From Candidatus Omnitrophota bacterium (GTDB lineage: Bacteria > Omnitrophota > Gorgyraeia > Pluralincolimonadales > Pluralincolimonadaceae): a DNA stretch of 64,000 nucleotides. The notes beneath the pieces were generated by a model. It worked only from the letters and a program-made list of their open reading frames with translations, was not told the DNA's origin and did not search any database. Position numbers and translations under genes: made by a program. The DNA lies in contig PLNR01000002.1 of the NCBI GenBank assembly GCA_003141835.1, positions 78,026 through 142,025 on the forward strand. The letters run 5' to 3'. Every line of letters begins with the position of its first letter. Within the stretch, counting starts at the first letter, position 1. This document shows positions 13,916-47,891 of this stretch, piece after piece.

Positions 13916-13938
13916 ATTAGACCTATAATCCTCCTATC

Positions 13939-16395
<2,457 letters not shown>

Positions 16396-28721: not shown

Positions 28722-28722
28722 A

Positions 28723-29421
28723 ATGCCATTACTTACGGTGATAATACCCGTTTATAATGAAGTAAACACATTAAAAAGCATCTTAGAAAAAGTAAATTCC
28801 GTGGATTTAGATAAGGAGATCATCGTGGTCGATGATGGCTCTTCCGACGGTACGAGAAAACTGCTGGGTGAGATCAAAAGCGATAGTATGAAGATAATCT
28901 ACCATGCCAAAAACAAGGGGAAAGGCGCTTCTTTTTTGACGGGCCTTGCAAATGCCAAGGGTGAATTTGTCATACCGCAGGACGCCGACTTAGAGTACGA
29001 TCCGCAAGATCACGTGGCTTTAGTCGATTACGCCCTGAAAAACAACTTAGCAGCGGTGTACGGGTCCCGTTTTCTAAAAACATGGAGATGCACTTATCTC
29101 TGGCACTATCTTGTAAATAGATTCCTTACGATTTTTACGAATATCCTTTTCGGGTCTTCCTTAACCGACATGGAAACCTGCTATAAGCTTATAAGGCTGG
29201 ACCTGGTAAGGGGGTTGGACCTTCAATCCAGCGGGTTTGAAATAGAGGCGGAGATAACCGGTAAGCTCCTCAAAAAAGGCCATAAAATAGCCGAGATCCC
29301 CATATCTTATAAGCCCCGTTTTGGCGATCAAGGCAAAAAAATTGGCTGGAAAGACGGCGTAAGCACCCTATTATGCCTTATTAAATTACGATTAAAAAAT
29401 GACCAGAACCATAAACCCTAA
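28723..29421 (+). CDS. GT2 glycosyltransferase, polyprenol-phosphate sugar synthase (DPM1/ArnC)-like.
   Basis: VIIPVYNE...VVDDGSSDGT...DADL (DxD). 232 aa, soluble. Confidence 0.75.
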   Translation: MPLLTVIIPVYNEVNTLKSILEKVNSVDLDKEIIVVDDGSSDGTRKLLGEIKSDSMKIIYHAKNKGKGASFLTGLANAKGEFVIPQDADLEYDPQDHVALVDYALKNNLAAVYGSRFLKTWRCTYLWHYLVNRFLTIFTNILFGSSLTDMETCYKLIRLDLVRGLDLQSSGFEIEAEITGKLLKKGHKIAEIPISYKPRFGDQGKKIGWKDGVSTLLCLIKLRLKNDQNHKP

Positions 29422-31440: not shown

Positions 31441-31483
31441 ACGCAGGGCCGGGACGTAAATAACAAGGAAAAAGAGGGTAAGC

Positions 31484-32677: not shown

Positions 32678-34074
32678 GTAAGATACTTCTGCTGAGCCCT
32701 CCGTACCTGCCGGAGTATATGCGCAACGCAAGGTGCGACTTCGTCTCCTTATCGGCAACGCAGTGGTACCCGATCTTATTGGGTTATTGCGGCGCATATT
32801 TGGAAGGCAAAGGTCACGAAGTTAAACTTATTGATGCACCAAGCCAGCGCCTCAACCATGAGCAGGCGCGCAAGATCGCAACAGATTACAGGCCGGATTT
32901 GCTGGTTTTATATACCGGCTTAATGAGCGAGAAGAATGACCTGGAATTTACCGATTCCCTGCTGGAAAAATTAAAATGCGACGCGGTCATCGTTGGGCCA
33001 TACGCTTCTATCGATCCCGAAGGGACGCTTGGCCGTGCGCGGTCCATTAATAAGTTAGTCGCGGGTGAGTTTGAATATCCGGTCGGCGAGGTGGCCGCAA
33101 GGGGAAAAGCGCAGGGAATAAGGAACCTGTTATATAAGGAGAACGGAAAGGTGGTCCGCAATCCCGCGCGGCCGTATCTCGGCACTAAAGAACTTGACGC
33201 AATGCCTTTTGTCTCGCGTTTTTTCCGCGGCCACATTGATATTTACCGATATAAGACCCCGTCCGAACCGTACCCTTTTATGGATATCATGACCGGGCGC
33301 GGGTGTAAATGGGGATTATGCACTTATTGCCTTTGGGTGCATACTTTCGTAAAGGGGAGCTGCTATAATTTACGCAGTATCGCAAATGTCATGGATGAGC
33401 TCCATTTTATTGAGCGCGATATGCCAGCGGTGCGCTCCGTAATGATCCAGGATGACACTTTCACGCAGGAACGGGCGGCTGAATTTTGCGAAGCCAAAAT
33501 AAGGGAGGGCATCAAGATCCCCTGGTCCTGCTATACCAGGGCCGACCTGGACCGCGAAGTATTAAAACTAATGAAAAGGTCCGGATGCCGTAATCTGCAC
33601 GTAGGTTATGAATCCGCCTCAGAGCGGGTGCTCACATTGATAAAAAAGGGATTGACCGTAGAGAGGATGACAAAATTCACCGAAGACGCGAAGCACTCGG
33701 GTTTGCGTATCCACGGTGATTTTGCCTTGGGTTTTCCCGAAGAGACCGTTGAGGATGCCGAAAAGACCATCGAATGGGCTTACAGGCTCAATCCCGATAC
33801 CGCGCAGTTCCAGCTCATGATCCCTTACCCGGGGACGCCTTTTTACGAGCTTATGGTGAAGAACAAATGGTTGAATGCCTGCGGTCAGCCGGATATGCCA
33901 AAATTCAGCAATGAACAGATACGTATGATGGCCAAGAAGGCTTACCGCCGGTTTTACCTGAGCCCGCGGTATATTTGCAAATGCCTAAGGCACCCGAGGG
34001 ACCATTTTTTTAACAGGCTAAAGACAATAAGAAGGGCCGTTCCGGCCATGTTTTGGAAGAAATGGGAGGTTTGA
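32674..34074 (+). CDS. B12-binding radical SAM enzyme, number 2.
   Basis: B12-domain N-terminus (MSKILLLSPPYLP...). Variant cluster motif CKWGLCTYC. 466 aa. Confidence 0.75.
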   Translation: MSKILLLSPPYLPEYMRNARCDFVSLSATQWYPILLGYCGAYLEGKGHEVKLIDAPSQRLNHEQARKIATDYRPDLLVLYTGLMSEKNDLEFTDSLLEKLKCDAVIVGPYASIDPEGTLGRARSINKLVAGEFEYPVGEVAARGKAQGIRNLLYKENGKVVRNPARPYLGTKELDAMPFVSRFFRGHIDIYRYKTPSEPYPFMDIMTGRGCKWGLCTYCLWVHTFVKGSCYNLRSIANVMDELHFIERDMPAVRSVMIQDDTFTQERAAEFCEAKIREGIKIPWSCYTRADLDREVLKLMKRSGCRNLHVGYESASERVLTLIKKGLTVERMTKFTEDAKHSGLRIHGDFALGFPEETVEDAEKTIEWAYRLNPDTAQFQLMIPYPGTPFYELMVKNKWLNACGQPDMPKFSNEQIRMMAKKAYRRFYLSPRYICKCLRHPRDHFFNRLKTIRRAVPAMFWKKWEV

Positions 34075-36095
34075 TGAAAAAGGCGGTCTCTCCTTTCATA
34101 TTAGTGGGCTATATCTCTATTTTAGTTTTTCTTGTTTATTGGGGATATAACCATTCGTTCTGGACGCAATGCGATCCCACCCTTGTGCCTCAGAATGAAC
34201 AAGCCAGTTATGACGCCTTCGGCCTCTATACTTATGCCAAAGTGGTACACAGGGAACACATCCATCCCCAAAGGGTCTTTTCTACATTATGGGGAGAACT
34301 GCCGTTTTACGTTTACTCCATGGGTATCGGCGTATTCGGCGAACGGTTTTCCAGCATCAGGGAAGTCTTTGCCTTATTCAGCGGATTATGGGGGGCGGTA
34401 ATATTTTTGATCGTTTGGCTAGCGACAAAAAGACCGACGCTTTCTTTTTTTGTAGCTTTGATCTTTATCCCGTTTTCCGGGCATGTGAATTTCCACGCTA
34501 ACCGGGGTTACGCCCATTTTTATACTTTTATATTCCAGGCGCTGTCGTTGTATTTTATGCTGCTTTATTCCAAAAGGAAAAGAAGATGGTTGTTAGCGGC
34601 CGTCGGCCTGATACAGGGGATCTCTTTCGGGTTTAAGTATGAACTGTCGTTACTCGGATTATCGGCGGCGCTGATGGTGCTGTATGCCCTCGAGACCGTC
34701 GAAGCATATAATTACGTAATAACGGAAAGCGGGCATATCGGCTGCGGGCTAAAATACCGGGCATTGAGGATAGCCAAGTTTTTGTCCCTGTTCCTCGTTT
34801 TTGTAGCCAGTTTTTACTTTGTCCGTTTAGGGTTTTTATCCTACCTTTTACTTGTTTTTTGGATAGGTTGTTTTGCGATGTTGCTCTTTGAATTAAGATT
34901 GATGCGGGCTATCCGGCAGCAACCGGACAAACCCGGAGCGCCAGGCAGGCCGTATAACGGCATCTCCGGCCTGGGGAAGGATATTTTCGCTTTAGTAGCG
35001 CCGTTTGCGTTGGTCATCGTGTTGTTATTTGTACATATGTGGCAGGCGACCAACTTTGAAGTGGCAAGGAATTATTTTATCCAATTAACGAATACCTCAA
35101 GCCAAATTGCCCAGATGAATCTTTCCTCTTTGGCTAATCAGGCTGATTACAACTTAATGTATTTTTTATCCAGCCATCCATTTACGCTTCCGCAGATCGT
35201 TACCTGGTTTTTTGGGGCGTTCCTGGCTTATTGGGTGCTGTTTTTCATTAAAGATATGATCAGCAGGGGGATCTTAATAGGATTCTCGCTATTCGCCGTT
35301 TTTGCCGTATTAAAGATCGACCAGATCTATATCCTTTCAATGTTCTATTTTATATCCGCGGTCAGTTTATTATTATGGGCGTATTTTTTGGACCTGGTTC
35401 GCAGGTCGGAAATAAAGCGCCTGCCTCCGGAACTTATCGTTTATCTCTGTTTTATGGCTGTCGGGTCTTTAAGCCTTTTGAGGGAATCGGCAAGTTTCGA
35501 CCTTAATATATGGTCCATGCTCCCCGCGTTGATCGGGAGCCTTGCTTTTGTCGTATATTCGCCGTCCATCGGCAGTAATAAATCCACTTATCTTAAGACG
35601 ATGTGCCTGGCAGCCGTATTTTATTTTGCGGCGGTAGCGTGGTTCCAGATAGAAGCGGTAAACATGGTTTTCTACAGGTTCATGCCACAAGGAAGGCTTA
35701 TGGCCATAGACCGCGAATTCGATCTTTTGATCCCAAAGGAAACAGCCGTCCCCCTCAGGGAAATGAAAGAATACTTCCAGGCCAATCTCGGTAAGGATGA
35801 GTACATTTTTATTTTCAGCGACCACATTTACCCTTATATCTTCACGCCGGGCGGGCTTCCTTGCGAGTACCTTGCGAGCTTCCAGGTTCCCGACAAGAAG
35901 AGGGAGGACAGGATGCTTTTATTATTAAGGACTAAAAAAATAAAATACGTCTTATTCTCATGCGGGATGGCGGCCTATAATTCAGAATTGGCAGCCAGGA
36001 ATTATCCGAAGCTTTACGATTTTATTTCCAAAAATTACGTAAAAACAGACAAGCAATTCCTGAATTTCGTCGTATATAGGAATACTAACACATAA
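34053..36095 (+). CDS. Large polytopic membrane protein of unknown function. GT-C-like glycosyltransferase or polymerase is possible.
   Basis: 680 aa, at least 14 hydrophobic segments, no recognisable soluble domain. Confidence 0.4.
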   Translation: MEEMGGLMKKAVSPFILVGYISILVFLVYWGYNHSFWTQCDPTLVPQNEQASYDAFGLYTYAKVVHREHIHPQRVFSTLWGELPFYVYSMGIGVFGERFSSIREVFALFSGLWGAVIFLIVWLATKRPTLSFFVALIFIPFSGHVNFHANRGYAHFYTFIFQALSLYFMLLYSKRKRRWLLAAVGLIQGISFGFKYELSLLGLSAALMVLYALETVEAYNYVITESGHIGCGLKYRALRIAKFLSLFLVFVASFYFVRLGFLSYLLLVFWIGCFAMLLFELRLMRAIRQQPDKPGAPGRPYNGISGLGKDIFALVAPFALVIVLLFVHMWQATNFEVARNYFIQLTNTSSQIAQMNLSSLANQADYNLMYFLSSHPFTLPQIVTWFFGAFLAYWVLFFIKDMISRGILIGFSLFAVFAVLKIDQIYILSMFYFISAVSLLLWAYFLDLVRRSEIKRLPPELIVYLCFMAVGSLSLLRESASFDLNIWSMLPALIGSLAFVVYSPSIGSNKSTYLKTMCLAAVFYFAAVAWFQIEAVNMVFYRFMPQGRLMAIDREFDLLIPKETAVPLREMKEYFQANLGKDEYIFIFSDHIYPYIFTPGGLPCEYLASFQVPDKKREDRMLLLLRTKKIKYVLFSCGMAAYNSELAARNYPKLYDFISKNYVKTDKQFLNFVVYRNTNT

Positions 36096-38278
36096 TGTTC
36101 AAGATATTATTGGTCAATCCGCCGCGGGAACATGTGGTTAAACCCGATCTTCCGGGGACTATCAATGTTGATCTGGGCGAAATATCTTCGTTCCCCCCGA
36201 TGGGGCTGATGTATCTGGCCCAAGCGGTGCGCCAGCATGACCGAAATTTCAGTGTAAAGATATTAGATGCGGTACCGGATAAGATCTCTTATGGCCGGAT
36301 CGCGGAAATAGCCTTTGACTATTCCCCGCAGGTCATAGGGATCACGGCCCATACGTATACTTTTTATGACGTTTGGAAAACGGCATCCGAGCTGAAGAAG
36401 CGCTTACCCGGGGTGCCTATCGTCATCGGAGGATCGCACATGTATATCTTCCCCCGGGAAACCATGACACACAACTGTTTTGACTTCGGTGTCAGCGGGG
36501 ACGGAGAGGATGTTTTTTCGGGTTTATGCGGATCTTTATATAAGAACATCGAGATAAGGTCATCACCGGGATTATTTATAAGGAAAGGCGATGAGGTTAC
36601 TGGGTCCGGCACGGCCCTGGTCAGCGACCTCGACCTGGTCAAATTACCGGCAATAGACCTTATAGACCACGACAAGTATTACAGTACGATAGGTCAGCAA
36701 AAAGCTGTCGGAACGATCTGTTCATCAAGGGGATGCCCTTTCCGGTGCACGTTTTGCCAGGTCCCGAAAGTCCCGTTCAGGACCCGGTCTATTAAAAATG
36801 TCATACTTGAGATCAAGGAATACGGCAAGGCCGGCGTAGATGATTTTTTCTTTTTTGATGACCTTTTTAACATGACCAAAGGCCGCGTCGTTGAATTTTG
36901 CAATGAAGTACTGGATAATAAGTTAAAGATCGGTTTTATGTTCAGGGGGCGGATAGACCAGATAGACGATGAGATGCTGGAGCTCGCGCGCAAAGCGGGT
37001 TGCCACAGCATTTCTGTCGGGATAGAAGATGCCACGGATGAAGGCCTTAAGGCCATAAAGAAGAACATCACGATAAAGCAGGCTTTTGATTGCGTACGCC
37101 TTATACGTAAATACGGGATACGTTGTTCAACGAATTGGATCATCGGTTTTCCGCACCATAAAACAGCAGGCGATCTTGAACATTTATTGAATACGGCAAT
37201 AAAGATGGATTCCGACTATGCGCAGTTCAGCGTATTACAATGCCTGCCGGGCAGCGAGATCTACGAGCAGGCGGTCAGGGAGAAAGGAATAGACCCGGAA
37301 GCATGGCGTTCGTATGTATTAAATCCCGTGGATAAATTCGAACCATTAATATGGGAAAAGCATTTTACCAAAGCAGAGCTTTTTAAATTCTACGAGCACT
37401 GTTATAAAAAGTATTATTTCAGGCTTAAAGTATTTGCTCGGGAGATGCTTAATCTCAAGAGCGCAGACGAGTTTTTGCTCAAAGTCCGTGCGTTTAAGAC
37501 GGTATTTTTCAAGAAGAGGGAAGAGATAACGAGGGAGAGGGTCACTGAGGCCAACCGCATCTTTTACGACGCAGTCGCCGAAGATTATGAAAAGATAGAC
37601 GGGAGGCGGAACGCAGGGCTTATGAGGTGGCTCAGGTCAAACCTCGAGGGCATCCGTAAGATCTCTCCTGGAGGCAGGTTATTGGATATCGGGTCCGGCA
37701 GCGGTTTGGTTGGCCGCTGCGCAGAAGGGATATTTGAATACAGGGCCGGCATCGACGTGTCAAAGGCGATAGTAGACGCCAACCGTAATTCGTACGATTT
37801 TGTAATAGAAGGCGATCTTAATAAGTTGCCGTTTGAATCGGAAAGCTTCGACGTTATAACATGTTTTGCGGTCCTGCACCATTTACATGGTTTTGAATCG
37901 CTGGTCTCAGAGGTATCCAGGGTCCTGAAGCCGGGGGGAGTGTTTTATGCCGACCACGATATGGATAAAAAATTTAGCGAGAATTTCTACCTACCGCTCG
38001 CGATTTACAGAAGACTGAAAAATGCAAAAGGCCAATACGGTAAAATAGCGGGCAAGGCCGCCTATGACACGTATGATTATGCCGAATGGCAGGCGGACGG
38101 CATAAAATCCGGGGAGATCGTGAAATTGTTCCGGGAGAAAGGGTTTTCCGTCTCCGTCAAATATCACTGGTATGGGCTCTCTTTTTTCACTGACATTGTT
38201 TTTTCCAAAATGCCGTATCCACGAGGATTCGCGCCGGTATTCTCGATACAGGCGGTTAAAACAGGTAAGCGGCCATGA
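36095..38278 (+). CDS. B12-binding radical SAM enzyme (number 3) fused to a C-terminal class I SAM-dependent methyltransferase domain.
   Basis: CPFRCTFC in the rSAM core. The C-terminal roughly 230 aa carry the Rossmann MTase motif I LLDIGSGSGLVG and the post-I acidic residue. 727 aa. Confidence 0.75.
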   Translation: MFKILLVNPPREHVVKPDLPGTINVDLGEISSFPPMGLMYLAQAVRQHDRNFSVKILDAVPDKISYGRIAEIAFDYSPQVIGITAHTYTFYDVWKTASELKKRLPGVPIVIGGSHMYIFPRETMTHNCFDFGVSGDGEDVFSGLCGSLYKNIEIRSSPGLFIRKGDEVTGSGTALVSDLDLVKLPAIDLIDHDKYYSTIGQQKAVGTICSSRGCPFRCTFCQVPKVPFRTRSIKNVILEIKEYGKAGVDDFFFFDDLFNMTKGRVVEFCNEVLDNKLKIGFMFRGRIDQIDDEMLELARKAGCHSISVGIEDATDEGLKAIKKNITIKQAFDCVRLIRKYGIRCSTNWIIGFPHHKTAGDLEHLLNTAIKMDSDYAQFSVLQCLPGSEIYEQAVREKGIDPEAWRSYVLNPVDKFEPLIWEKHFTKAELFKFYEHCYKKYYFRLKVFAREMLNLKSADEFLLKVRAFKTVFFKKREEITRERVTEANRIFYDAVAEDYEKIDGRRNAGLMRWLRSNLEGIRKISPGGRLLDIGSGSGLVGRCAEGIFEYRAGIDVSKAIVDANRNSYDFVIEGDLNKLPFESESFDVITCFAVLHHLHGFESLVSEVSRVLKPGGVFYADHDMDKKFSENFYLPLAIYRRLKNAKGQYGKIAGKAAYDTYDYAEWQADGIKSGEIVKLFREKGFSVSVKYHWYGLSFFTDIVFSKMPYPRGFAPVFSIQAVKTGKRP

Positions 38279-39309
38279 TGAGTGCCATGAAAACGGTAAA
38301 ATTCGGATGTCGACTTCTGAAGGCGAAGATCTTGCGCAGGAATATCCCGTTCGTAGTGCAATTTTCGGTAACTAACAGATGCAACTATAAATGCAGGTAT
38401 TGCTACGCGAAATATTACGAACGGAAGACTGCCGAATTAGACTTAAGGCAGATATTTAAGATGGTAGATGACTTGTGCCGGATAGGGACAGTCAGGATCA
38501 ACCTTGTCGGAGGCGAGCCGTTGTTAAGAAAGGATATAGGAGAAATAATAGATTACATCACGGGTAAGGGGATTGAGTGCGCGATGACAAGCAACGGTTC
38601 TTTAGTCAGGGAAAAGATAAACGATATAAGGAAGCTGGACCTGCTATGCCTGAGCCTGGACGGCGATAAAGCGGCGAATGATTATAACAGGCATGCCGGG
38701 TCATATGATAAGGTCATGGAAGCGATCGACAGCGCGCTTGAGCGAGGCATAAAGGTCCAGATCGCCACGGTATTGACAAAAGAGAGCATTCCATCAATAG
38801 ATTTCCTGGTAAATTTAGCAAATAAGAAGAAGATCAAGATTGCGTTTACAACCCCGATCACGCAGGCATCCGAAGGCGGAAGCAAAGCCATCTCAAATAT
38901 CCCTTCGGACAGAGATCTGAAGGCCGCCATCAAGAAAATAATCAGCCTAAAGAGGATGAAAAACCCAATACTCTTCTCGTACAAACCTTACAAGTTCGCT
39001 TTAGATTGGCCTATCGGATACGATATCGATAAGATCATAGGCAAAAAACCGGGTTTTAAGTTCCCGAAATGCTATGCCGGGAAATATTGGGGGATCATAG
39101 ATGTCAACGGTGATGTCTATCCATGCCCCGCCCTGGTAGGGGTAGTGAAACCGCATAACTGCATAGAAAAGGGATTTAAAGAGGCATGGCGGGAAGTCTC
39201 AAAACACGCATGTTTCACGTGCCATCTCCCGTGCAATAACGAGTTCAATTACCTGTTCGCGTTAGATCCGGAGACCATAATAGACACATGCAGGCACAAC
39301 GGGAAGTAA
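38275..39309 (+). CDS. Radical SAM/SPASM enzyme, number 2.
   Basis: CNYKCRYC. C-terminal 7-Cys SPASM-like segment (CYAGKYW...CPALVG...CIEK...CFTCHLPC). 344 aa. Confidence 0.75.
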   Translation: MMSAMKTVKFGCRLLKAKILRRNIPFVVQFSVTNRCNYKCRYCYAKYYERKTAELDLRQIFKMVDDLCRIGTVRINLVGGEPLLRKDIGEIIDYITGKGIECAMTSNGSLVREKINDIRKLDLLCLSLDGDKAANDYNRHAGSYDKVMEAIDSALERGIKVQIATVLTKESIPSIDFLVNLANKKKIKIAFTTPITQASEGGSKAISNIPSDRDLKAAIKKIISLKRMKNPILFSYKPYKFALDWPIGYDIDKIIGKKPGFKFPKCYAGKYWGIIDVNGDVYPCPALVGVVKPHNCIEKGFKEAWREVSKHACFTCHLPCNNEFNYLFALDPETIIDTCRHNGK

Positions 39310-40817
39310 AGGCGATGAAGGTGTTGCTGATAAAGCCTTACCTTACCATAAATTCCGAAGATTGCGAAACGTACGGGTTATTCCCGCCGATGGGCCTTGC
39401 TTATCTGGCAAGCGTGTTAGAAAGGGACGGATTTGATGTGAGGATCCTGGATTGCCAGATAACAAAATCCGGAAAGAGCAATGCAGGATTAGGCGATTCT
39501 GTAAGAATGGGGATATCAGATAGCGAAATAAGGAAATATATAAACGATTTCAAGCCGAGTATAATTGGCATCTCCAGCAATTTTACCAGTTTTTATTTGG
39601 ACCCCATCAATGTTGCAAAGCTGTCAAAAGGTGCCTGCCCTACGGCCAAGATCGTGCTGGGCGGTGCGCATGCTACGGTTGCTTACAGGGATACGTTGAA
39701 TGTAAAAGAGGTGGATATCGTCGTCAAGGGCGATGGGGAGATGCCTTTCCTGGAGTTGCTTCAGAAGATCCGGGAAGGAAGACATTATCACGATACCTGG
39801 AATATTGCGGCGAAGGACGAGACCGGGAATATAATCGACAATCCCCTGAGAGAGCCGATGACGAAGCTGGACGATCTGCCGTTCCCGGCTTATCATTTGC
39901 TGGACATGGACCGATATATACACCAGCACGGCAAGAACTTCGCTTTTTATTACGCTTCCCCGGCCGGTTTTATCATGACTCAAAGGGGATGCCCCTATAA
40001 TTGCATATTTTGTTCCACGTCGAAGTTCTTTAAAAAATACAGGGAAAGAAGCCCCAAGAACGTGGTGGACGAGATAGAATTCCTGGTCAAGGAATATAAA
40101 ATACGCGAGATCCATATATTAGACGACTGTTTTAACGCCAATGCCGGACGGGTAAAAGAGATCTGCAGGGGCATGATCGACAGGGACCTAAAGATCTCAT
40201 GGCAAGTTGGGCAGGGTATGAGCATAACAAACCTTGACCGGGATTCCTTGAAGTTAATGGTAGAAAGCGGCCTGTACAGGATAGGTTTTTCGATAGAATC
40301 CGGCTCGCGCAAGACCCTTAAGTACATCAGGAAGGCCATGGACCTGGAACGGTCGCTGCAAATAATAGAACAGTGTAATTCCGTGGGGCTTTATACGCAC
40401 GGGAATTTTGTTATAGGCTTCCCCTATGAGACTGTAGAAGATGTCGGGGAAACCGTTGCGTTCATAATGAAGTCGAAACTGGATTTTATCAAACTTACCA
40501 TTTGCCAGCCCTTATCAGGAGCGGACATTTACCAGTCTTTTATCGACGCGGGGATCTTTGACGGCACTCCCAGGGACGGGAGCCATTACCTCCACACCCT
40601 GTACGACACCAAATTCTTAACTGCCTCGCAGCTGAATAATATCCGGACAGGGACCGTCAGGAAATTTTTTATCAATAAGATATTATGCGTATTCAGTGTC
40701 AACGGCCTCAGGTATTCGATCTGGCCGAAAGTCGGGTCGCCCGGGAAATTACGGTATTTTCTTAAAGTGAGTTTTAATATCCTGCGCTTGATAGTCTTAA
40801 GAAGGAATATCGCATAA
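39288..40817 (+). CDS. B12-binding radical SAM enzyme, number 4.
   Basis: MKVLLIKPYL... B12 domain. CPYNCIFC. 509 aa. Confidence 0.8.
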   Translation: MQAQREVKAMKVLLIKPYLTINSEDCETYGLFPPMGLAYLASVLERDGFDVRILDCQITKSGKSNAGLGDSVRMGISDSEIRKYINDFKPSIIGISSNFTSFYLDPINVAKLSKGACPTAKIVLGGAHATVAYRDTLNVKEVDIVVKGDGEMPFLELLQKIREGRHYHDTWNIAAKDETGNIIDNPLREPMTKLDDLPFPAYHLLDMDRYIHQHGKNFAFYYASPAGFIMTQRGCPYNCIFCSTSKFFKKYRERSPKNVVDEIEFLVKEYKIREIHILDDCFNANAGRVKEICRGMIDRDLKISWQVGQGMSITNLDRDSLKLMVESGLYRIGFSIESGSRKTLKYIRKAMDLERSLQIIEQCNSVGLYTHGNFVIGFPYETVEDVGETVAFIMKSKLDFIKLTICQPLSGADIYQSFIDAGIFDGTPRDGSHYLHTLYDTKFLTASQLNNIRTGTVRKFFINKILCVFSVNGLRYSIWPKVGSPGKLRYFLKVSFNILRLIVLRRNIA

Positions 40818-40818
40818 C

Positions 40819-41817
40819 ATGAAGAACCTGGATAAGAGGCTGTATTTGGCCTCACGTTATCTGTTGAGGAAAACCGACTGCAATATGCCTCCACTCAGGA
40901 TGGGCGTAGAGCTTACAAATAACTGTAACCTGGAATGTATCATGTGCCCCAGGGGTGGGATGAGCCGGAAGATAGGGAACATGGATATTGCCGCCTTCAA
41001 GAGGGTAATAGACCAGGGGAAACAGGGCCTGGAGATGGTTTCCCTGCAGGACGCCGGAGAGTCGACATTGAACCCGGGCCTGGCCGAAATGATACGATAT
41101 TGCAAAAAGAACGGAGTCCGGACATTATTATCGACGAATGCTACGCTTTTGCGCGGGAAACTGGCTGAGGACCTGGTCTCGTCCGGTCTTGATTACATCA
41201 TTTTCGCCTTAGACGGGGCCACAAAAGAAACATATGAAAAAATAAGGATAGGGGCAGATTACGATGCCGTAGTGTCAAATATAAAAAATTTTATTACTGA
41301 AAAGAAACGGCGGAACGTCAGGCTATTTTGCACTTTGCAGTGTATCTATATGGATGATACGGAGAAGGAGATCAGGCAGTTCGTGCGCATGTGGAATATA
41401 CCGGGCGTTGACGCGGTAAGGATCCGCCAGATCACGCACGGCGTCGACACCGGCGACCCGAAGCAAAATAAATATTCCAATATCGATTACAAACTGCCTT
41501 GTTATTGGTTATGGAGCGACCCGTATGTTAAGTGGGACGGCACAGTGGTCCCGTGCTGCCAGGACGTTAACGCAGATTACGTCCTCGGGAATATCATAGA
41601 CAAACCGATGAGCGAAATATGGAACTGCCAAAAGATGCAGGATCTGCGCAATATGCACCTGAAAGGCGGGATCGGCCTGGTGCCCTTATGTAAAAATTGC
41701 AATATGTATAAGCCTAAATGGCCTTTTATTTTAGGCAGTTCATTTGTCGGCATAATGCAATTGCAAAAGTTAGTCCCGTTTATTGAAAGTGTAATATGCA
41801 AGAGAAGGTACTCGTGA
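40819..41817 (+). CDS. Radical SAM/SPASM enzyme, number 3.
   Basis: CNLECIMC. C-terminal Cys-rich SPASM (LPCYW...PCCQD...CQK...CKNC). 332 aa. Confidence 0.75.
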   Translation: MKNLDKRLYLASRYLLRKTDCNMPPLRMGVELTNNCNLECIMCPRGGMSRKIGNMDIAAFKRVIDQGKQGLEMVSLQDAGESTLNPGLAEMIRYCKKNGVRTLLSTNATLLRGKLAEDLVSSGLDYIIFALDGATKETYEKIRIGADYDAVVSNIKNFITEKKRRNVRLFCTLQCIYMDDTEKEIRQFVRMWNIPGVDAVRIRQITHGVDTGDPKQNKYSNIDYKLPCYWLWSDPYVKWDGTVVPCCQDVNADYVLGNIIDKPMSEIWNCQKMQDLRNMHLKGGIGLVPLCKNCNMYKPKWPFILGSSFVGIMQLQKLVPFIESVICKRRYS

Positions 41818-43199
41818 AATTCTTACTTGTCACGGCGCTTGACAAAAAATTCGTCAAACTTTGGGCTTGCCAGGAGACTTCGCATATAGGGAGCATGCTT
41901 CCCCCGTCTGACCTGTGCAGCATCGCCTCGAACATCCGGTCAAACGGCCACGATGCCGCCATTTTAGATCTGCGCCTGTTCGCGGATCCCGTCGGTACAT
42001 ACGTCCGTAAATTAAAAGAATACGGCCCGGATGCCGTTATCCTGAATATATCGACAACTACGGCAAACGATGATTTTAGGATCGTCTCTTTGACCCCTGA
42101 TCCGGTAAAAAAAATAGCTTTTGGGACCCATGCCATAGCCGAACCCGGCGATTGTTTTCAACACGGAGTAGATTTCATCCTGGCCGGAGACCCGGAAAAG
42201 TGTATCATGGAACTGGCTGATCACGGCCTCGCGCCGGATAAAACCAGGGGTGTTATTTCAAAAGATACGGTTATTGAAGGGTTTAAGCCCCTTTACGAAG
42301 AAGACCTGGACCATTTCCCGTTGCCTGCCCTTGACCTGGTCGACCTGGACAGGTATCATACCCTTTTCGTAAAGAACAGGAGATTTTCCGTCATACTCGG
42401 CAGCCGGGGCTGCCATTTCGAGTGCAACTTTTGCCTTATGCCGTGTTTATTCGGGGCGAAAATAAGGCAAAGAAGCGCGAAAAATATCATAGATGAAATG
42501 AAGCGCGATTTCGAGATGTTCAAGGTAAGGGATTTTGTTTTTTTGGACGCCACATTCAACAGCAGCGAGTCGCGGGTGTTCGACATCTGCGAAGAGATCG
42601 ACAGGAATAAGATGAATTTCGTAAGATGGTCATGCAACATGCGCGTTTCTCCCGTATCTGGAGCTTTATTAAAAGCAATGAAAAGATCGGGATGCCAAAG
42701 GATATTCTATGGAGTGGAAGATGCCGGCTTATTGAACGAGATAAATAAGAATATAACCTTCGAGCAGATAAAAAAGGCATTCTATCTCACCAGGAAACAC
42801 AGGATAGAAGCAGGAGCTTTTTTGATGCTATTCCCGAACGGGGCCGTGAGCGAAGCAGATTACACCGCGAAGATAGTACGATTGATTAAAGAGATAAAGG
42901 CGGACATGTTCCAGTGTAATGTTGCAATACCGTTCCCCGGTACGGCGATGTATAAGAAAATGAAAAATGATCTGTCAGGCAACTGGTCTCTTTACGACCC
43001 CAACGGGACATGCCTTCCCTATAGTTCACCGGTAGACCTCGTATCAGTAAAGAACAGCGTGTATTTAAAAATAGCATTATCCAGCCCGCGTATAGTATTA
43101 AGGACATTATTAACCGCGAACAGGGAAGACCTTATTTATGTCATTAAGAAATTTATCGCCATGATCAGGAAGGGCAAGAAGGGAAGATGGAAAAAATAG
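41796..43199 (+). CDS. B12-binding radical SAM enzyme, number 5.
   Basis: B12-domain N-terminus. CHFECNFC. 467 aa. Confidence 0.75.
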   Translation: MQEKVLVKFLLVTALDKKFVKLWACQETSHIGSMLPPSDLCSIASNIRSNGHDAAILDLRLFADPVGTYVRKLKEYGPDAVILNISTTTANDDFRIVSLTPDPVKKIAFGTHAIAEPGDCFQHGVDFILAGDPEKCIMELADHGLAPDKTRGVISKDTVIEGFKPLYEEDLDHFPLPALDLVDLDRYHTLFVKNRRFSVILGSRGCHFECNFCLMPCLFGAKIRQRSAKNIIDEMKRDFEMFKVRDFVFLDATFNSSESRVFDICEEIDRNKMNFVRWSCNMRVSPVSGALLKAMKRSGCQRIFYGVEDAGLLNEINKNITFEQIKKAFYLTRKHRIEAGAFLMLFPNGAVSEADYTAKIVRLIKEIKADMFQCNVAIPFPGTAMYKKMKNDLSGNWSLYDPNGTCLPYSSPVDLVSVKNSVYLKIALSSPRIVLRTLLTANREDLIYVIKKFIAMIRKGKKGRWKK

Positions 43200-45052
43200 A
43201 CCTATTCTTCGAAAAATATGCGGATCACCTGATCTGGGTGCTTATTTCAGCGTATATCCTAATTTTCGGGTATATATGTTTCTTAAAATACCAATATTTT
43301 GGTTATTACGACTTTGACTTGGCCAGCGACGCGGTCGTTTTTTGGAATAGCGTTCACGGCAAACTGCTGTATTTTCCTTTTTTGGAAGAGATAATTTTCG
43401 GGGCCCATTTGTATCTGATAATGTTCCTGATCATGCCGATATACGCGGTTTTCCAGAGCCCGTTGACGATCTTATTCCTGCAGAGCGCGTTCCTGGGATT
43501 GGCGGCATACCCGCTGTATTTGTTGGCAAAGACCAAGCTGAACAAAACTTTTTCTTTGGCCGTAGTCCTGGCCTACCTGTTATATCCCGCGCTGGGATTC
43601 GGCAATCTTTTTGAAACGCATTTTGATATGTACGAGATCTTTTTTCTTTTCTTTACATTGTATTATTTTGAAAAGGGCTATTTTAAAAAGTTCCTCGTTT
43701 TTATATTCTTGACACTGTTCTGCAAAGAGAACGCGAGCCTGGTCGTATTCATGATGGGCATATACGCGATGGCGCGAAGGAGGCCGGCAAAGTGGGTCCT
43801 GGTGCCTTTGTTTGCCGGCGCTGCCTGGTTTTTAGTATCGGTGAAGGTCGTGATCCCCTTCTTTGCGAAGGACGCGAAATTATATCCCGAAGGTTTTATA
43901 TTCGGCTCCCATTACAGGCACCTAGGGAACAGCCTCTCTGAAATGGTCAAGACGATAATCCTGCATCCGGTACAGGTCGCGGCTTACGCGCTTACCCCCA
44001 GGAAAATACTGTACCTGTTCCACCTATTTTTGCCGGTCGGCTTTATAGGTTTATTAAGCCCGTTGCCCTTGTTGATCATCATCCCGATCTTGATGCAGAA
44101 TTTGCTGGCTTGGTCGGAAACCACCTCATCGATCTATTTCCACTACGTTGCGATAATGATCCCCTTCATATTCTTTTCGGTCATATGCGGGCTCGATAAG
44201 CTGATGCGCTATGAAGCCGTCTCCAGGCACCGGGCGAGGTTATTGTTTTGTTTTTTAGGGTTTGTCGTTATTTCAGGCATATATTTACAGGCGCCGCAAT
44301 TTACCTTCGCGCGGCACATATCCCAGTATCAAGCCGGAGATAATACGCGGGAAAGAGATAAACTGATCGAAGCAATACCGAAAGATTCTTCCGTAATAGC
44401 GACTTTTCAGTTTTTACCCAAGTTATCCAACAGGCACGATCTTTATTCCATGCATTTTGTATCGACCGGGAACAAGATGTATACGAACGTGAAATATGAA
44501 CCGCCAAAGGACCTTCAATATGCGCTCATAGATTTCAACGAGCCTTTAATGATCAATGCCTTCTTCCCGCCATCCGCCCCGGACAACATCCGCTCTTTCC
44601 TTGAAGCGGGGGACTGGAGGGTCGCAAGGGCCTTTAATGACACCGTCCTGTTCAGGAAGGGCTATGTTAAAGGCCCAAAGCTCTGCGAGATGGTCGTTGA
44701 TCCCAAGATACAATACCCGATGAGCGTGGACTTGAATAAAGAGATCCTCTTTTTGGGCTATGATATCGTCGATGATAGCGCGCCGGACAGCAGGATATTA
44801 CATCTGGCCTATTACTGGAAGAGGATAAAAGGCAATAGCAGGCCGACAAGCTTTTTCATCCAATTCTCGGATGCGGAAGGCAACGCCAGGTTAAGGGTCG
44901 AGCACGCGTTCGGCTACAGGGTGTACATGCAGGACGAATGGAAAGAAGGGCAGGTTGTAAAGGAGCACCATTACATCCTAGTCCCTTCCGGTACGAGTAA
45001 GGGCGATTATAATATCAGCTTCGGCCCATTTATTTTCGTTAAAACAGATTAG
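43187..45052 (+). CDS. Polytopic membrane protein with a C-terminal extracytoplasmic domain (DUF2079-like, putative GT-C). Paralog A.
   Basis: 621 aa. About 12 TM helices, then a roughly 200-aa soluble domain. Same architecture as the next gene. Confidence 0.5.
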   Translation: MEKIDLFFEKYADHLIWVLISAYILIFGYICFLKYQYFGYYDFDLASDAVVFWNSVHGKLLYFPFLEEIIFGAHLYLIMFLIMPIYAVFQSPLTILFLQSAFLGLAAYPLYLLAKTKLNKTFSLAVVLAYLLYPALGFGNLFETHFDMYEIFFLFFTLYYFEKGYFKKFLVFIFLTLFCKENASLVVFMMGIYAMARRRPAKWVLVPLFAGAAWFLVSVKVVIPFFAKDAKLYPEGFIFGSHYRHLGNSLSEMVKTIILHPVQVAAYALTPRKILYLFHLFLPVGFIGLLSPLPLLIIIPILMQNLLAWSETTSSIYFHYVAIMIPFIFFSVICGLDKLMRYEAVSRHRARLLFCFLGFVVISGIYLQAPQFTFARHISQYQAGDNTRERDKLIEAIPKDSSVIATFQFLPKLSNRHDLYSMHFVSTGNKMYTNVKYEPPKDLQYALIDFNEPLMINAFFPPSAPDNIRSFLEAGDWRVARAFNDTVLFRKGYVKGPKLCEMVVDPKIQYPMSVDLNKEILFLGYDIVDDSAPDSRILHLAYYWKRIKGNSRPTSFFIQFSDAEGNARLRVEHAFGYRVYMQDEWKEGQVVKEHHYILVPSGTSKGDYNISFGPFIFVKTD

Positions 45053-45058
45053 GAAGAT

Positions 45059-46924
45059 ATGAAAAAAATAGAAGAATTTTGCCAGAAATACGCAGATCGC
45101 CTGGTCTGGGTATTTATTTCAGCGTATGTTATTATTTTCACTTGTTTATGTTTCATGAAATACAGGTCATTCCACTATTATGACTGGGACCTGGCAAGCG
45201 ATGCGGTCGTCTACTGGAACAGCATCCACGGCAAGATGCTGTATTATCCGTTTCTCGGCGGTAACATATTCGGCGCGCACATTTATCTGATCGCCTTCCT
45301 GGTCATGCCGCTATACGCCGTCTTCCAGACGCCGCTCTTGCTCCTATTCCTCCAGAGCCTTTTTTTAGGAACGGCCGCCTACCCGCTTTATCTTATCGCG
45401 AGGTCCAGGCTCGGTAAAAGTTTCGCTTTAGCTATAGCGGCAGCATACCTTCTTTATCCGCCGTTGGGCAACACCAACCTTTTCGAGACGCATTTTGACG
45501 CATACGCCGTTTTCTTCCTGTTTTTTACGCTGTATTTTTTTGAGGTAGAAAAATTTTGGAAGTTCCTTGTATTTGCTTTGCTGGCGATATCATGTAAGGA
45601 GAATATCGGAGCCGCGATATTTATGATAGGTGTTTACGGCCTCGTCAGGAGAAGAAGCGCGAGATGGACGTTTTTGCCCATGGCGTTGGGAGCGGCATGG
45701 TTTATTATTTCCATCGGAGTACTGGTGCCCATGCTCTCAAAAAGCATGAAAGTGCAATTAAACAGCGATAACTACATGTTCATGGAACTTTACAGGCACT
45801 TCGGAAAAGGAATTTTCGGGATAGCAAAGGGAATGTTATCGGAACCGTTTGATACGATAAGATTTGCTTTTACTCCCGGGAAATTATCATATCTTGCCCA
45901 GATATTCGCTCCGCTTGCTTTCACGCCTTTACTGGCGCCTTCCGCGCTAATGATGGCAATACCGCTGTTCCTGCAGAACCTGCTGGCAGGTAAGTGGACG
46001 TTCACATCCATACATTATCACTACACGGCGCTGCTTATTCCTTTTATATTTTTCGCTTCCGTCGTCGGGATAGAGAGGATCTCAAAGTCCGCGGCGCCTT
46101 TCCTTAAAAAGAGTAATTTAAAAGTTTATTTTCTTGTTGCGGCAGTAGCGTCTTCCATCTTCCTCGAGGCTCCGCAGATGGAGCTATATAAGATTTTTAG
46201 ATTGTACCGGATAGACGAATACTCTAAAGAGAAAGAAAAGGTCCTGGATCGGATACCTAAAGATGCTTCCGTGATCGCTACATTCCAGTTCTTGCCAAGG
46301 CTTGCGAACAGGCATGATGTTTATCCGTTAAATTGGTTATTGGTGCGCGATAAGGTGCACGCGTCCTGCGGATACGAACCGCCCGCAAACCTCGAATACA
46401 CACTGATAGATTTCAACGAACCCCTCATGACCAGGGGGGCTTTCTTCCCGCCCTCCGCCCCGGGCAACATCCGTTCTTTCCTTGAAGCGGGGGACTGGAG
46501 GGTCGCAATGGCTTTTAATGACATCGTCCTGTTCAGGAAGGGCTATGATAAAGGCCCAAAGCTCTGCGAGGCGGTCCTTAATCCCAGGATACGGTACCCC
46601 ATGAACGTGGACCTGAATAAAGAGATCCTCTTTTTGGGCTATGATATCATCGATGATAGCGCGCCGGACAGCAGGCTATTGCATATGGTATATTACTGGA
46701 AGATGATAAAAGGCAATAGCAGGCCGACAAGCTTTTTCGTGCAGTTCTTGGACGCCAAAGGCAACTTCAAGTTCCAAAATCAGCATGTTTTCGGTTACAG
46801 GGTATATTTACGGGACGAATGGAAAGAAGGGCAGGTTGTAAAGGAGCACAATTATATCCTGATCCCTTCCGGCGCGGATGAAGGCGACTACAGCATTAGC
46901 TTCGGCCCGTTTATTTTCGATTAA
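45059..46924 (+). CDS. Polytopic membrane protein (DUF2079-like, putative GT-C). Paralog B.
   Basis: 621 aa, co-linear with paralog A. The C-terminal domain DNA is nearly identical to paralog A (compare 44560-44690 with 46440-46570). Confidence 0.5.
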   Translation: MKKIEEFCQKYADRLVWVFISAYVIIFTCLCFMKYRSFHYYDWDLASDAVVYWNSIHGKMLYYPFLGGNIFGAHIYLIAFLVMPLYAVFQTPLLLLFLQSLFLGTAAYPLYLIARSRLGKSFALAIAAAYLLYPPLGNTNLFETHFDAYAVFFLFFTLYFFEVEKFWKFLVFALLAISCKENIGAAIFMIGVYGLVRRRSARWTFLPMALGAAWFIISIGVLVPMLSKSMKVQLNSDNYMFMELYRHFGKGIFGIAKGMLSEPFDTIRFAFTPGKLSYLAQIFAPLAFTPLLAPSALMMAIPLFLQNLLAGKWTFTSIHYHYTALLIPFIFFASVVGIERISKSAAPFLKKSNLKVYFLVAAVASSIFLEAPQMELYKIFRLYRIDEYSKEKEKVLDRIPKDASVIATFQFLPRLANRHDVYPLNWLLVRDKVHASCGYEPPANLEYTLIDFNEPLMTRGAFFPPSAPGNIRSFLEAGDWRVAMAFNDIVLFRKGYDKGPKLCEAVLNPRIRYPMNVDLNKEILFLGYDIIDDSAPDSRLLHMVYYWKMIKGNSRPTSFFVQFLDAKGNFKFQNQHVFGYRVYLRDEWKEGQVVKEHNYILIPSGADEGDYSISFGPFIFD

Positions 46925-46949
46925 AGGCTTAATTAGAAGGAAAAGGCGC

Positions 46950-47891
46950 ATGCCGGCTAAAATATTGATAATAAAATTGGGGTATTCAGAGACCCTTGAC
47001 AAGGAAATAGGGACTACCACGAGTTTGGGGGACGTCCTGCGGACGACCGTCATCTTGAATTATTTTAAAGATGACGACGTCACCTGGCTTGTGGACGAGA
47101 AAGCCTACCCGCTGCTCAAGGGGAACCCTTTTATAAGGCGCGTCCTCGTCTTCGGGCCGGGATCGGTGAAACAATTGCAGCGCGAGCGGTTCGATACAGT
47201 GATCAATCTCGAAAAAGGCCCGGAGATCTGCGCTTTTTCGGATTCGGTGAAAGCGCGGAGGAGGTTCGGGTTCAGGCTCGACCCGGGAACCGGTGCCGCG
47301 CAGGCATACGGCGGCGCGGAGATGGTATTAAGCCTTTGCCTTGACCTGGAGAAGAAAAAGGAGAATATGAAATTTTGGCAGGACGCGCTCGCTTCCATGA
47401 TAGGCAAAAGATGGTCGGCGCGCGAAGAATATATACTTGGTTACAAGCCGCGTTCTAAGGTAAAATATGATATAGGCTTTAATTGGGTCGTGGGAGACAA
47501 ATGGCCTAACAAGGCGTGGCCCAAAAAGAATTGGCAAAAGCTCGAAAGGTCGTTAAAGGGCAGATACAACGTATCCTGGCAAAAGGGCCTCCGTGACCTT
47601 GACGACTACATGGATTGGATAAACTCCTGCCGGCTCATCGTGACCAATGACAGCCTGGGGATGCACCTGGCGATCGCCTTAAGGAAAAAGATAATCGCGC
47701 TTTTCGGGCCAAGTTCCTCGAAAGAGGTCTATCTTTACAAGAGAGGCGTAAAGCTTCTGCCGAAGACGCGGTATAAATGTGTGCCGTGCCTCGATCCCGT
47801 CTGCGCCCAAAAGGTCAATTGCATGGAATATATCACTCCGGAAGCGGTAAGAGAAGAGATCGTAAAGATGCTTCCGGCCAAGAGGAGATAG
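46950..47891 (+). CDS. GT9 family glycosyltransferase (ADP-heptose:LPS heptosyltransferase-like).
   Basis: Start reassigned to MPAKILIIKLGY (ATG 46950, SD GAAGGAAAAGG). GT9 C-terminal motif region (IVTNDSLGMHLAIAL...ALFGPS). Confidence 0.7.
   Translation: MPAKILIIKLGYSETLDKEIGTTTSLGDVLRTTVILNYFKDDDVTWLVDEKAYPLLKGNPFIRRVLVFGPGSVKQLQRERFDTVINLEKGPEICAFSDSVKARRRFGFRLDPGTGAAQAYGGAEMVLSLCLDLEKKKENMKFWQDALASMIGKRWSAREEYILGYKPRSKVKYDIGFNWVVGDKWPNKAWPKKNWQKLERSLKGRYNVSWQKGLRDLDDYMDWINSCRLIVTNDSLGMHLAIALRKKIIALFGPSSSKEVYLYKRGVKLLPKTRYKCVPCLDPVCAQKVNCMEYITPEAVREEIVKMLPAKRR

Follow-up and report, generated by a model that had tools for sequence, protein, structure and literature searches.

Partial gene conversion between paralogues is a textbook process, and the gene pair described here does not represent a new type of system. 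In babA and babB, homogenised gene ends flank a divergent middle. The GT-C paralogues EmbC-EmbA-EmbB of mycobacteria and Pmt1-Pmt2 of yeast are also adjacent or paired. They have carbohydrate-binding domains at the C-terminus or in the lumen and act as dimers, each on a single polymer or class of substrate. Concerted evolution is not known to have been reported for the soluble domains of Emb or Pmt proteins. Partial conversion between the Helicobacter pylori outer-membrane paralogues babA and babB has been reviewed (PMC3960876). For recurrent concerted evolution in prokaryotes, no more than 26 long-lasting cases were described, the majority of them genes of core pathways, together with the general pattern of homogenised ends and a divergent middle (PMC6053082). 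The tandem mammalian paralogues TLR1 and TLR6 are reported to undergo domain-restricted conversion, which limits the divergence of one region while another specialises (PMC2077338).

Here, we describe a tandem pair of genes in a 64,000-nucleotide stretch of DNA from Candidatus Omnitrophota bacterium (contig PLNR01000002.1), hereafter the window. Genes A (43187-45052) and B (45059-46924) are on the forward strand, separated by a 6-nt spacer, and each encodes a protein of 621 residues. Both ORFs are exactly where a sequence-only reading of the window had placed them. The two collinear membrane paralogues that it described are indeed present, and their alignment contains two small indels only. 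Both proteins belong to Pfam family DUF2079 (PF09852). They match most of the model, with scores of 193.3 bits for A (model positions 9-422 of 459) and 199.2 bits for B (positions 9-403), for a gathering cut-off of 28.2 bits. DUF2079 is a family without a characterised member. Our literature search found no mention of its name and a single paper containing “PF09852”, irrelevant to the topic, and no NCBIfam model matches A or B. The A-type gene is single copy in most related Omnitrophota genomes and is syntenic in L003 and L006-L019. The B-type is rare, with four protein clusters among 5.8 billion in a dedicated census. The B membrane core is at best about 50% identical to any A-type, and B retains every family-invariant residue. 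Annotated genes in the neighbourhood (about 27261-58919) encode three GT2 and one GT9 glycosyltransferases, a sugar epimerase/dehydratase, radical SAM proteins and E1 alpha/beta subunits. These tandem, co-transcribed paralogues lie in a large glycan-biosynthesis operon. Elsewhere in the window, a pair of 817-aa ORFs at 11462-16392 was considered as a second tandem paralogue pair and ruled out, the ORFs being unrelated.

The AlphaFold model of A (pLDDT 87, pTM 0.87) reveals a GT-C_A fold. The 16 best Foldseek matches in the PDB are all GT-C enzymes (STT3, AglB, PglB and ArnT; E-values 1e-6 to 9e-4), with moderate TM-scores of 0.35-0.43, and AftA comes next (E = 1.2e-2). The assignment is structural, without a sequence-level match, as a family-profile search of solved structures gave nothing at E<=1. 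GT-C_A enzymes comprise a conserved N-terminal TM module, a variable C-terminal TM module and a soluble outer domain, and their first extracytoplasmic loop carries the catalytic acidic residue in its first helix (PMC13503287). A and B share with this group (STT3/PglB/AglB, ArnT, PMT, ALG3/9/12) the polytopic fold, the module order and the acidic first-loop helix. They differ from it in that sequence comparison links them to none of the solved structures, and the periplasmic domain of PglB/STT3 is unrelated to their C-terminal beta-sandwich. The acidic residues belong to a D42-F-D44 motif (codons at 43310-43318 in A, 45182-45190 in B). D42 and D44 are invariant in an alignment of 30 sequences, B-types included. 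In the model of A, they mark the beginning of helix 43-56, which comes immediately after TM1. This first loop is acidic, and the positive-inside rule places it outside, with the C-terminal domain on the same side. D42 and D44 are therefore acidic residues of the first outer-loop helix, as in GT-C_A enzymes, and are candidates for the catalytic base and the metal site. A and B both keep these aspartates and the other family-invariant residues, and both are predicted to be active enzymes using a polyprenyl-phosphate-linked sugar donor at the periplasmic face; for the donor and the side of transfer, the GT2, GT9 and sugar-modifying genes of the operon provide the context. The divergence of the two proteins is greatest in the variable TM module (residues ~166-390), which contacts the acceptor in solved GT-C_A enzymes. 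Hence, A and B probably perform different transfer steps. ALG3/9/12, paralogues acting on one growing glycan, provide a functional analogy.

Comparison of the two genes reveals a mosaic. Third-codon-position identity is ~0.2-0.45 over residues ~150-440 (~0.3 in the core), reaches 0.93-0.97 over 44573-44840 of A, and is ~0.6-0.8 from there to the stop codon. Objective segmentation delimits a conversion tract at codons 459-557 of A (44561-44857), paired with 46442-46738 in B, where 273 of 297 nt (91.9%) are identical. In A, the tract encodes helix 464-474 and the first strands of the C-terminal beta-sandwich, and its left edge adjoins a one-codon A/B indel. dS calculated according to Nei-Gojobori is 0.15 in residues 460-558 and ranges from 1.1 to saturated elsewhere. 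When third-position differences were shuffled, none of 10,000 replicates reached the observed run or segment score for the window pair, and the observed mosaic was likewise reached by 0/10,000 when four A/B pairs were tested. The third-position profile, dS and the shuffles thus exclude uniform divergence, and the mosaic seen by the sequence-only reading holds on sliding-window identity.

The extent of the mosaic has to be redrawn. Near-identity had been claimed for the last ~450 nt. It is real over about 300 nt at 92%, but the last ~490 nt as a whole are only 86.4% identical, and only the distal soluble domain, from residue ~459, is homogenised rather than all of 371-621. Further downstream, a 37-nt exact match (44932-44968 in A, 46813-46849 in B) sits in a tail that is otherwise only moderately similar (third-position identity 0.6-0.75) and looks like a remnant of an older or partial conversion. 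The N-terminal halves had been considered clearly divergent. This is correct for residues ~166-390, with 23-57% protein identity only, but residues 1-165 are 57-73% identical. Moreover, synonymous identity in the first 45 codons (43187-43321 in A, 45059-45193 in B) is 0.64-0.70, compared with ~0.3. In relatives, these first ~45 codons are demonstrably another hotspot of conversion; in the window, the signal is only suggestive. The tract itself contains 8.5 synonymous and 17.5 non-synonymous changes. The resulting omega of 0.52, which rests on these 26 changes, is raised but below 1 and gives no sign of positive selection in the tract. Searches with tblastn and blastn found no further copies of the tail in the window.

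Two nearby near-identical stretches of ~100-300 nt, one of them at a gene 3’ end, with mostly non-synonymous mismatches, are reminiscent of the template and variable repeats (TR/VR) of a DGR. A DGR target/template pair was ruled out. The mismatches are mixed (A>G 8, T>C 5, C>T 5, G>A 4, others) and not adenine-specific, and both repeats are inside full-length homologous genes. No reverse transcriptase was found among the annotated neighbouring genes (~27261-58919).

The beta-sandwich module, delimited from phmmer matches, domain coordinates and the model, corresponds to residues ~502-615 of A (44690-45031) and to 46571-46912 in B (coordinates of A + 1881). A profile search of the C-terminal domain had been suggested as a check. 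For the module, phmmer found 1125 matches at E<=1e-3 among 1.84 billion representatives, and no Pfam model covers it in a Pfam scan. Scanning the matches with Pfam showed that the module is also carried by GT-C proteins of GT39/PMT_2 type, in 2-4 tandem copies. The domain is modelled with a pLDDT of 91. Structural searches for a specific fold gave weak generic beta-sandwich matches only (best E = 3.6e-3), to DUF3823, the Wzt C-terminal domain (2r5o), MD-1/NPC2 and GH accessory domains. From this distribution, we infer that GT-C enzymes share it as an accessory module, portable and periplasmic. A and B probably use it alike, either to hold the same glycan or carrier or to dock the same partner. 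Judged from sequence, the earlier proposal of a periplasmic module that has to stay the same in the two copies is plausible.

The A+B pair is also present in four other independent metagenome assemblies, with ~100% identical C-terminal tracts whose end-points are lineage-specific. In L002, a close relative, the tract is 327 nt, exact, at codons 458-566, with a dS of 0. In L039, it covers 272/273 nt at codons 511-601, and codons 449-510 are unconverted. L040 has two tracts, one of 146 nt, exact, at codons 1-49, and one of 412/461 nt at codons 436-589. All of the sequences come from short-read metagenome assemblies, and the exact tracts of L002 and L039 may have been partly sharpened by bubble merging. 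Closely related strains reveal events in both directions. The A genes of L040 and L038 differ at 11 of 1080 nt in the core and at 21 of 147 nt in codons 1-49, where L040 A differs from its own B copy at one of 147 positions, an instance of B to A transfer. This 5’ sequence of L040 A recurs in the independent assembly L037 (195/195). Conversely, in codons 436-589, L037 B differs from L040 B at 50 of 462 nt but from the A-type copy of L040 at only 2 of 462, which indicates A to B transfer; in principle, the L037 B tail could be a two-switch chimera. Overall, each of the five A+B lineages shows conversion, with up to ~30% divergence among their A genes. C-terminal homogenisation as a general trait of tandem DUF2079 pairs was ruled out, since other such pairs do not show it: the pattern is reversed in L014, and divergence is uniform in L034 and L026.

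Segment trees agree with this picture. In the membrane-domain tree, all B sequences form a single clade with 100% bootstrap support. In the C-terminal segment trees, A and B pair within genomes (99.5% for L002, 100% for L039), and A and B of L040 pair in the tree of the first 45 codons (99.5%). With outgroups included, B cores are deep and B tails are at the tips, next to their A partners. The N-domain of B is 45-52% identical to every A-type, while its C-domain tracks that of A. The C-domain is the fastest-evolving part between genomes (36% identity compared with 64% for the N-domain in P0046) and yet the most similar part within genomes. Saturated synonymous sites and the all-B core clade show that the A and B membrane cores are old paralogues. 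NJ trees put the B core, which is on a long branch, at the base of the A radiation. Given this long branch and the saturated dS, B may stem from an ancient duplication or be a later duplicate that evolved faster.

In the tract, the window pair forms a poorly supported clade (4.5-36% bootstrap), and the window tract may therefore not have arisen in situ. In addition, a segment at 44751-47450, spanning the A tail, the complete B gene and the 5’ half of GT9, is 75-89% identical to L002, whereas its flanks are 95-99% identical. Accordingly, dS between the window and L002 is 0.3-0.65 for the B orthologues and 0.06 for the A orthologues. This segment was replaced laterally between close relatives. 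It overlaps the conversion tract, and its edge falls inside the tract. Lateral replacement of B alleles between lineages is thus superimposed on conversion.

Concerted evolution of the C-terminal part through gene conversion is strongly supported. In the tract, similarity within genomes exceeds that between genomes and the reverse is true outside; synonymous sites are homogenised, and the events are recurrent and independent. The gene conversion or concerted evolution put forward by the sequence-only reading is supported by dS, discordant trees, differing end-points and strain-level tracts. Its restriction to the extracytoplasmic domain stands for the C-terminal tracts and fails for the exact 146-nt tract at codons 1-49 in L040/L037. 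As a whole, we consider it likely that the pair combines old, divergent GT-C cores with recurrent conversion of the C-terminal part. The last ~100-170 codons have been homogenised repeatedly within genomes by non-reciprocal homologous recombination, together with the first ~49 codons in the L040/L037 lineage. Tracts measure ~150-460 nt, run in both directions and end at points differing by lineage. The window tract (297 nt, 92%) is an older event, or came in with a B allele that was imported after its homogenisation in a close relative; the two window copies carry derived amino-acid changes acquired after homogenisation. Conversion would last at the gene ends, where identity is sufficient to initiate recombination and homogenisation is tolerated or favoured, and divergence would have put the core out of its reach.

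Explanations that dispense with recurrent conversion fit the data poorly. An assembly artefact, in which a copy or the tract would result from duplication, collapse or an assembler chimera, has to be considered with short-read metagenome data, and among the related contigs, L037, L038 and L041 are short and stop close to the repeats. We regard it as very improbable. The window copies differ at 24 of 297 positions in the tract and at ~50% elsewhere, and their longest exact match, 37 nt, is well below the k=141 of the contig name. In addition, the exact A protein is found on 4 contigs and the exact B protein (P0028) on 3, one of them an NCBI record, and the A+B arrangement is found again in four further samples and assemblers. 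The contigs with exact A and exact B also support indirectly that both copies lie on single DNA molecules, with their tracts as assembled. The assembly duplication that could have undone the earlier reading is thus not what the pair represents. Purifying selection alone, acting without recombination on the protein or on the nucleotides (embedded RNA, codon constraint), could account for the conserved protein motifs that the alignment shows in the C-terminal region. It is scarcely credible for homogenised synonymous sites, with a dS of 0.15 next to saturation. Between orthologues, third positions are not unusually alike in the tract (52-56% for A of the window and of L039), and the tract position varies by lineage. 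Rfam gave no match at E<=1 over 43000-47100, and no long ORF in another frame covers the tracts. A recent whole-gene tandem duplication, in which the tail would give the true age and the B membrane core would have diverged very fast by adaptation, agrees with the long branch of the B core. It is highly doubtful, as protein-level selection could not reach synonymous saturation of the core, the B core clade is common to lineages that share only ~70% identity in their A genes, and the tails of each genome pair with one another, with end-points that differ. Slightly less remote, yet still improbable, is a single ancient domain swap, or a chimeric horizontal acquisition of an A-type tail by B, with no later conversion. 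One event would be enough for the window pair alone, and B alleles do move between lineages. However, A=B identity is genome-specific, with different end-points in L002, L039 and L040/L037, and tract-sized, two-way differences distinguish ~99% identical strains.

The remaining question concerns what maintains conversion. It is possible, although we lean against it, that conversion is neutral and self-perpetuating: residual identity at the ends would permit RecA-type recombination, the core would have drifted past the identity threshold, the tail would have no special function, and import of B alleles would use the same homology as a crossover anchor. End-points that vary and ignore module boundaries (459-557 for the window tract, 502-615 for the module) are in favour of this model, as are the tract edge at an indel, the existence of a 5’ tract in TM1, the omega of 0.52 without a positive-selection signal, and the edge of the laterally replaced segment inside the tract. 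On the other hand, all five A+B lineages are converted, always at the same end, despite up to ~30% divergence of A, and a C-domain that is fastest between genomes but most alike within them is expected of a co-evolving module. Both points are only suggestive. Another reading is that the tail works as a cassette for specificity or docking, particular to each genome, in a cooperating GT-C pair, possibly a heterodimer like EmbA-EmbB or Pmt1-Pmt2. A tail imported within 44751-47450 would then be copied by conversion to the partner, both enzymes of the surface-glycan pathway switching specificity together. We consider this unlikely.

As in babA/babB, paralogues are closer within genomes than orthologues in a part of the gene, and the events are recurrent and lineage-specific. 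Those genes are dispersed and encode adhesins or porins, whereas A and B are tandem, co-transcribed enzymes of an uncultured Omnitrophota bacterium, with no sign of phase or antigenic variation. The TLR1/TLR6 pair consists of eukaryotic immune receptors, and A and B are predicted enzymes. The pair is an unusually well-resolved bacterial case of domain-restricted concerted evolution, with at least five tracts that have differing end-points and both directions, some of them polymorphic at ~99% identity. It also provides information on DUF2079, namely a predicted GT-C fold with invariant D42/D44 and a tail that is an autonomous non-Pfam module reused by GT39/PMT_2-type enzymes. The protein thus splits into a conserved, putatively catalytic module, a divergent variable TM module and an exchangeable tail. 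If the cassette hypothesis were true, the pair would represent recombination-based coordinated diversification of a surface glycan in Omnitrophota.

Genes A (43187..45052) and B (45059..46924) lie in tandem on the forward strand. Each is an ORF of 621 aa, and both products score well over the threshold of Pfam DUF2079 (PF09852). The spacer is 6 nt, and AGGAAG, a Shine-Dalgarno-like motif for B, overlaps the stop codon of A. A begins before the radical-SAM gene upstream of it has ended, so A and B are operonic. NCBIfam has no model for either protein, and a literature search found no paper naming DUF2079. The identical A protein is present on a 142-kb ENA metagenome contig, and the closest named relatives are Candidatus Omnitrophota/Omnitrophica MAGs. 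Most related genomes carry a single, syntenic A-type gene, with a B12-radical-SAM gene on one side and a GT9 gene on the other (loci L003 and L006-L019). The B-type membrane domain is rare: it is present in just four protein clusters out of 5.8 billion, and beyond these four identity falls from 79% to 51%. Against A-types, whether close or distant, this domain always shows 45-52% identity; the identities of the B C-terminal domain (C-domain) follow those of the A C-domain value for value. In a distant allele, P0046, the C-domain is 36% identical. A and B occur together in four more independent assemblies, represented by loci L002, L039, L040 and L037 (the last with L038/L041). The gene order is A-B in the window, L002 and L039, and B-A in the L040/L037 lineage (L040 844-4482; L037 133-2196; L038 2-1981).

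The A/B mosaic was examined by codon-aware alignment. Protein identity is 57-73% at residues 1-165, 23-57% at about 166-390 and 77-90% at about 450-550. Third-codon-position identity is about 0.2-0.45 in the core, the divergent membrane part, 0.93-0.97 over A 44573-44840, and 0.6-0.8 thence to the stop. Segmentation delimits a tract at A 44561-44857 / B 46442-46738 on the forward strand (273 of 297 nt identical) and, on the same strand, an exact match of 37 nt at A 44932-44968 / B 46813-46849. dS is 0.15 at residues 460-558 and from 1.1 to saturated elsewhere, and none of 10,000 shuffles reproduced the observed clustering of identity. The sequence-only reading had described the last 450 nt as almost identical. 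This is too strong, since the last ~490 nt are 86% identical, but the mosaic itself stands in the codon-aware alignment. Most of the 24 differences within the tract are non-synonymous (Sd 8.5, Nd 17.5, omega 0.52), and polarisation with orthologues reveals derived amino-acid changes in both A and B. A diversity-generating retroelement is ruled out because the differences are not adenine-specific. At A codons 537-541 (window 44795-44809), four clustered changes (ATA..CTG GCC) match the distant orthologue L019 and no close relative; they may reflect micro-import or chance.

In L002, L039, L040 and L037, the A/B pair is about 100% identical at synonymous positions within a C-terminal tract whose end-points vary. 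The tract covers codons 458-566 in L002 (327 nt exact), codons 511-601 in L039 (272/273 nt, with codons 449-510 unconverted) and codons 436-589 in L040 (412/461 nt). L040 has a second tract at the 5' end, codons 1-49 (146 nt exact). In the membrane-domain tree, one clade holds all B copies with 100% bootstrap. Trees of C-terminal segments pair the A and B copies of L002 (99.5%) and those of L039 (100%), and the tree of the first 45 codons pairs those of L040 (99.5%). The segment trees are thus mutually discordant with high support. When distant outgroups are included, the B membrane domain is found at the base of the A radiation and every B tail at the tips, beside an A partner.

Related strains could be compared directly. 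The A copies of L040 and L038 differ at 11 of 1080 nt in the core and at 21 of 147 nt in codons 1-49, a region where the L040 A copy matches its own B copy (1/147 difference). The 5' end of this A copy recurs in the independent assembly L037 (195/195). The B copies of L037 and L040 differ at 11 of 1077 nt in the core and at 50 of 462 nt in codons 436-589, where the L037 B copy matches the A-type copy of L040 (2/462 differences). This comparison is the most direct evidence for gene conversion, and it indicates that conversion is recent, recurrent and bidirectional. Elsewhere, a distant tandem DUF2079 pair (L014 2534-6399) has the reverse mosaic, with a membrane domain more similar than the tail, and in the pair at L047 7-2731 third-position identity rises locally to 92%, roughly between residues 380 and 430.

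Could purifying selection or an embedded nucleotide element keep the tails similar? This explanation is excluded: homogenisation extends to synonymous sites, the tract is not unusually similar between orthologues (third-position identity of 52-56% between the A copies of the window and L039), tract positions vary and no Rfam match was found. A recent duplication followed by rapid divergence of the core is likewise excluded by the saturated core dS. Genome-specific tracts with differing end-points are also more than one ancient swap could have produced. For the window, assembly duplication or collapse is excluded, as the two copies differ at 24 tract positions, their longest exact match is 37 nt and the exact proteins are found again on several contigs. 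In the other short-read assemblies, bubble merging could slightly sharpen the exact tracts, and the tail of the L037 B copy might conceivably be chimeric; the conversion pattern as a whole is independent of any one locus. As to what maintains gene conversion, a neutral, self-perpetuating process, as against selection for a shared module, appears possible though somewhat doubtful.

Comparison of the window with L002 shows 97-99% identity over 43251-44750 and 95-98% from ~47450 on. In between, at 44751-47450, identity drops to 75-89%; this segment takes in the A tail, the complete B gene and half of the GT9 gene, at its 5' end. Between these two loci, the A cores have diverged little (dS 0.06) and the B cores more (dS 0.3-0.65). 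With L039 the relation is reversed (A dS 1.4-1.8, B dS 0.4-0.65). These incongruent depths and the dip at 44751-47450 indicate that lineages exchange B alleles laterally, flanks included. On its left side the replaced segment has its crossover inside the shared tail, and the two window copies do not form a well-supported clade in tract trees. Two origins can therefore be envisaged for the 8% divergence of the window tract: either the tract was converted in situ at an earlier time, or the B allele was imported after being homogenised elsewhere with a closely related A. Single-copy genomes (L003 6001-7893, and L019) are nested among A+B genomes and have a clean A-GT9 junction. The C-terminal tail of their genes is extended and looks like that of the L002 B copy. 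Recombination between the direct repeats formed by the A and B tails would remove B, leaving a hybrid of this sort; loss by this route may be why B is so patchily distributed.

A was modelled confidently with AlphaFold (pLDDT 87, pTM 0.87). GT-C enzymes fill the first sixteen places among the PDB matches of the model (STT3, AglB, PglB, ArnT; E 1e-6 to 9e-4, TM 0.35-0.43), followed by AftA (E 1.2e-2). The family profile gave no sequence-level match to solved structures. D42 and D44 are invariant across A- and B-types and are located where the first helix following TM1 begins, the position of the catalytic base in GT-C_A enzymes (PMC13503287). The A/B difference is greatest at residues ~166-390, which correspond to the variable TM module that makes acceptor contacts in ALG3/9/12 (PMC13503287). 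The loop preceding the last TM helix is strongly positive, which places the C-terminal ~250 residues outside the cytoplasm. An extracytoplasmic C-terminal part is usual in other GT-C enzymes.

The C-domain model is also confident (pLDDT 91), and its structural matches are weak, generic beta-sandwiches (DUF3823, the Wzt carbohydrate-binding domain, MD-1/NPC2). A search with residues 459-621 against 1.84 billion representatives (E<=1e-3) matched 1125 proteins. Many are ~900-1,250 aa long and repeat the segment corresponding to A ~502-615 two to four times in tandem at their C-terminus, and these multi-copy proteins bear PMT_2/PMT or PTPS_related GT-C membrane domains. One module-bearing protein, from Chloroflexota, is annotated as glycosyltransferase family 39. 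The module, a beta-sandwich of ~113 aa for which Pfam has no model, is located at window 44690-45031 and 46571-46912 and also occurs in proteins P0131, P0132, P0141 and P0152. A few module-bearing proteins show faint ML-domain or Wzt_C matches. Its presence on other GT-C proteins places the homogenised region within a portable periplasmic GT-C accessory module.

The operon contains three GT2 genes, an NAD-dependent sugar epimerase/dehydratase and a GT9 heptosyltransferase-like gene, along with TPP-dependent E1 alpha/beta and many B12/SPASM radical-SAM genes. This content fits a cell-envelope glycan pathway. A 680-aa polytopic protein of the operon (34053-36095, ~12 hydrophobic segments) matches no Pfam family, has no sequence relationship to the YfhO-like protein upstream of the A-type gene in relatives, and may be another membrane enzyme of the glycan pathway. 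The ~14.5 kb directly upstream of the DUF2079 pair (28717-43186) has no nucleotide match in L002 or L003, and its flanks match them at 82-99%. It carries mostly radical-SAM/B12/SPASM, GT2, epimerase and methyltransferase genes. L002 and L003 have there instead a ~760-aa YfhO-like GT-C gene (in L003, plus one radical-SAM gene); this region is a variable island. Two 817-aa ORFs on the reverse strand (11462-13915 and 13939-16392), considered as a second tandem paralogue pair, are unrelated (BLASTP E 2.8); by their motifs they may be GyrA and GyrB.

A and B are old tandem paralogues that have undergone recurrent, bidirectional and partial gene conversion, together with lateral allele replacement. 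Gene conversion, as proposed from the window sequence, was essentially the right reading, and the finding is real. Both proteins would be active GT-C transferases that share one periplasmic beta-sandwich module; the divergence of their variable TM modules suggests that they carry out different steps. Surviving homology at the gene ends, where homogenisation is tolerated or favoured, may be what keeps conversion going there. The phenomenon is of a known kind, and the DUF2079 pair provides a well-documented case from an uncultured phylum, in a family of enzymes that is still uncharacterised.
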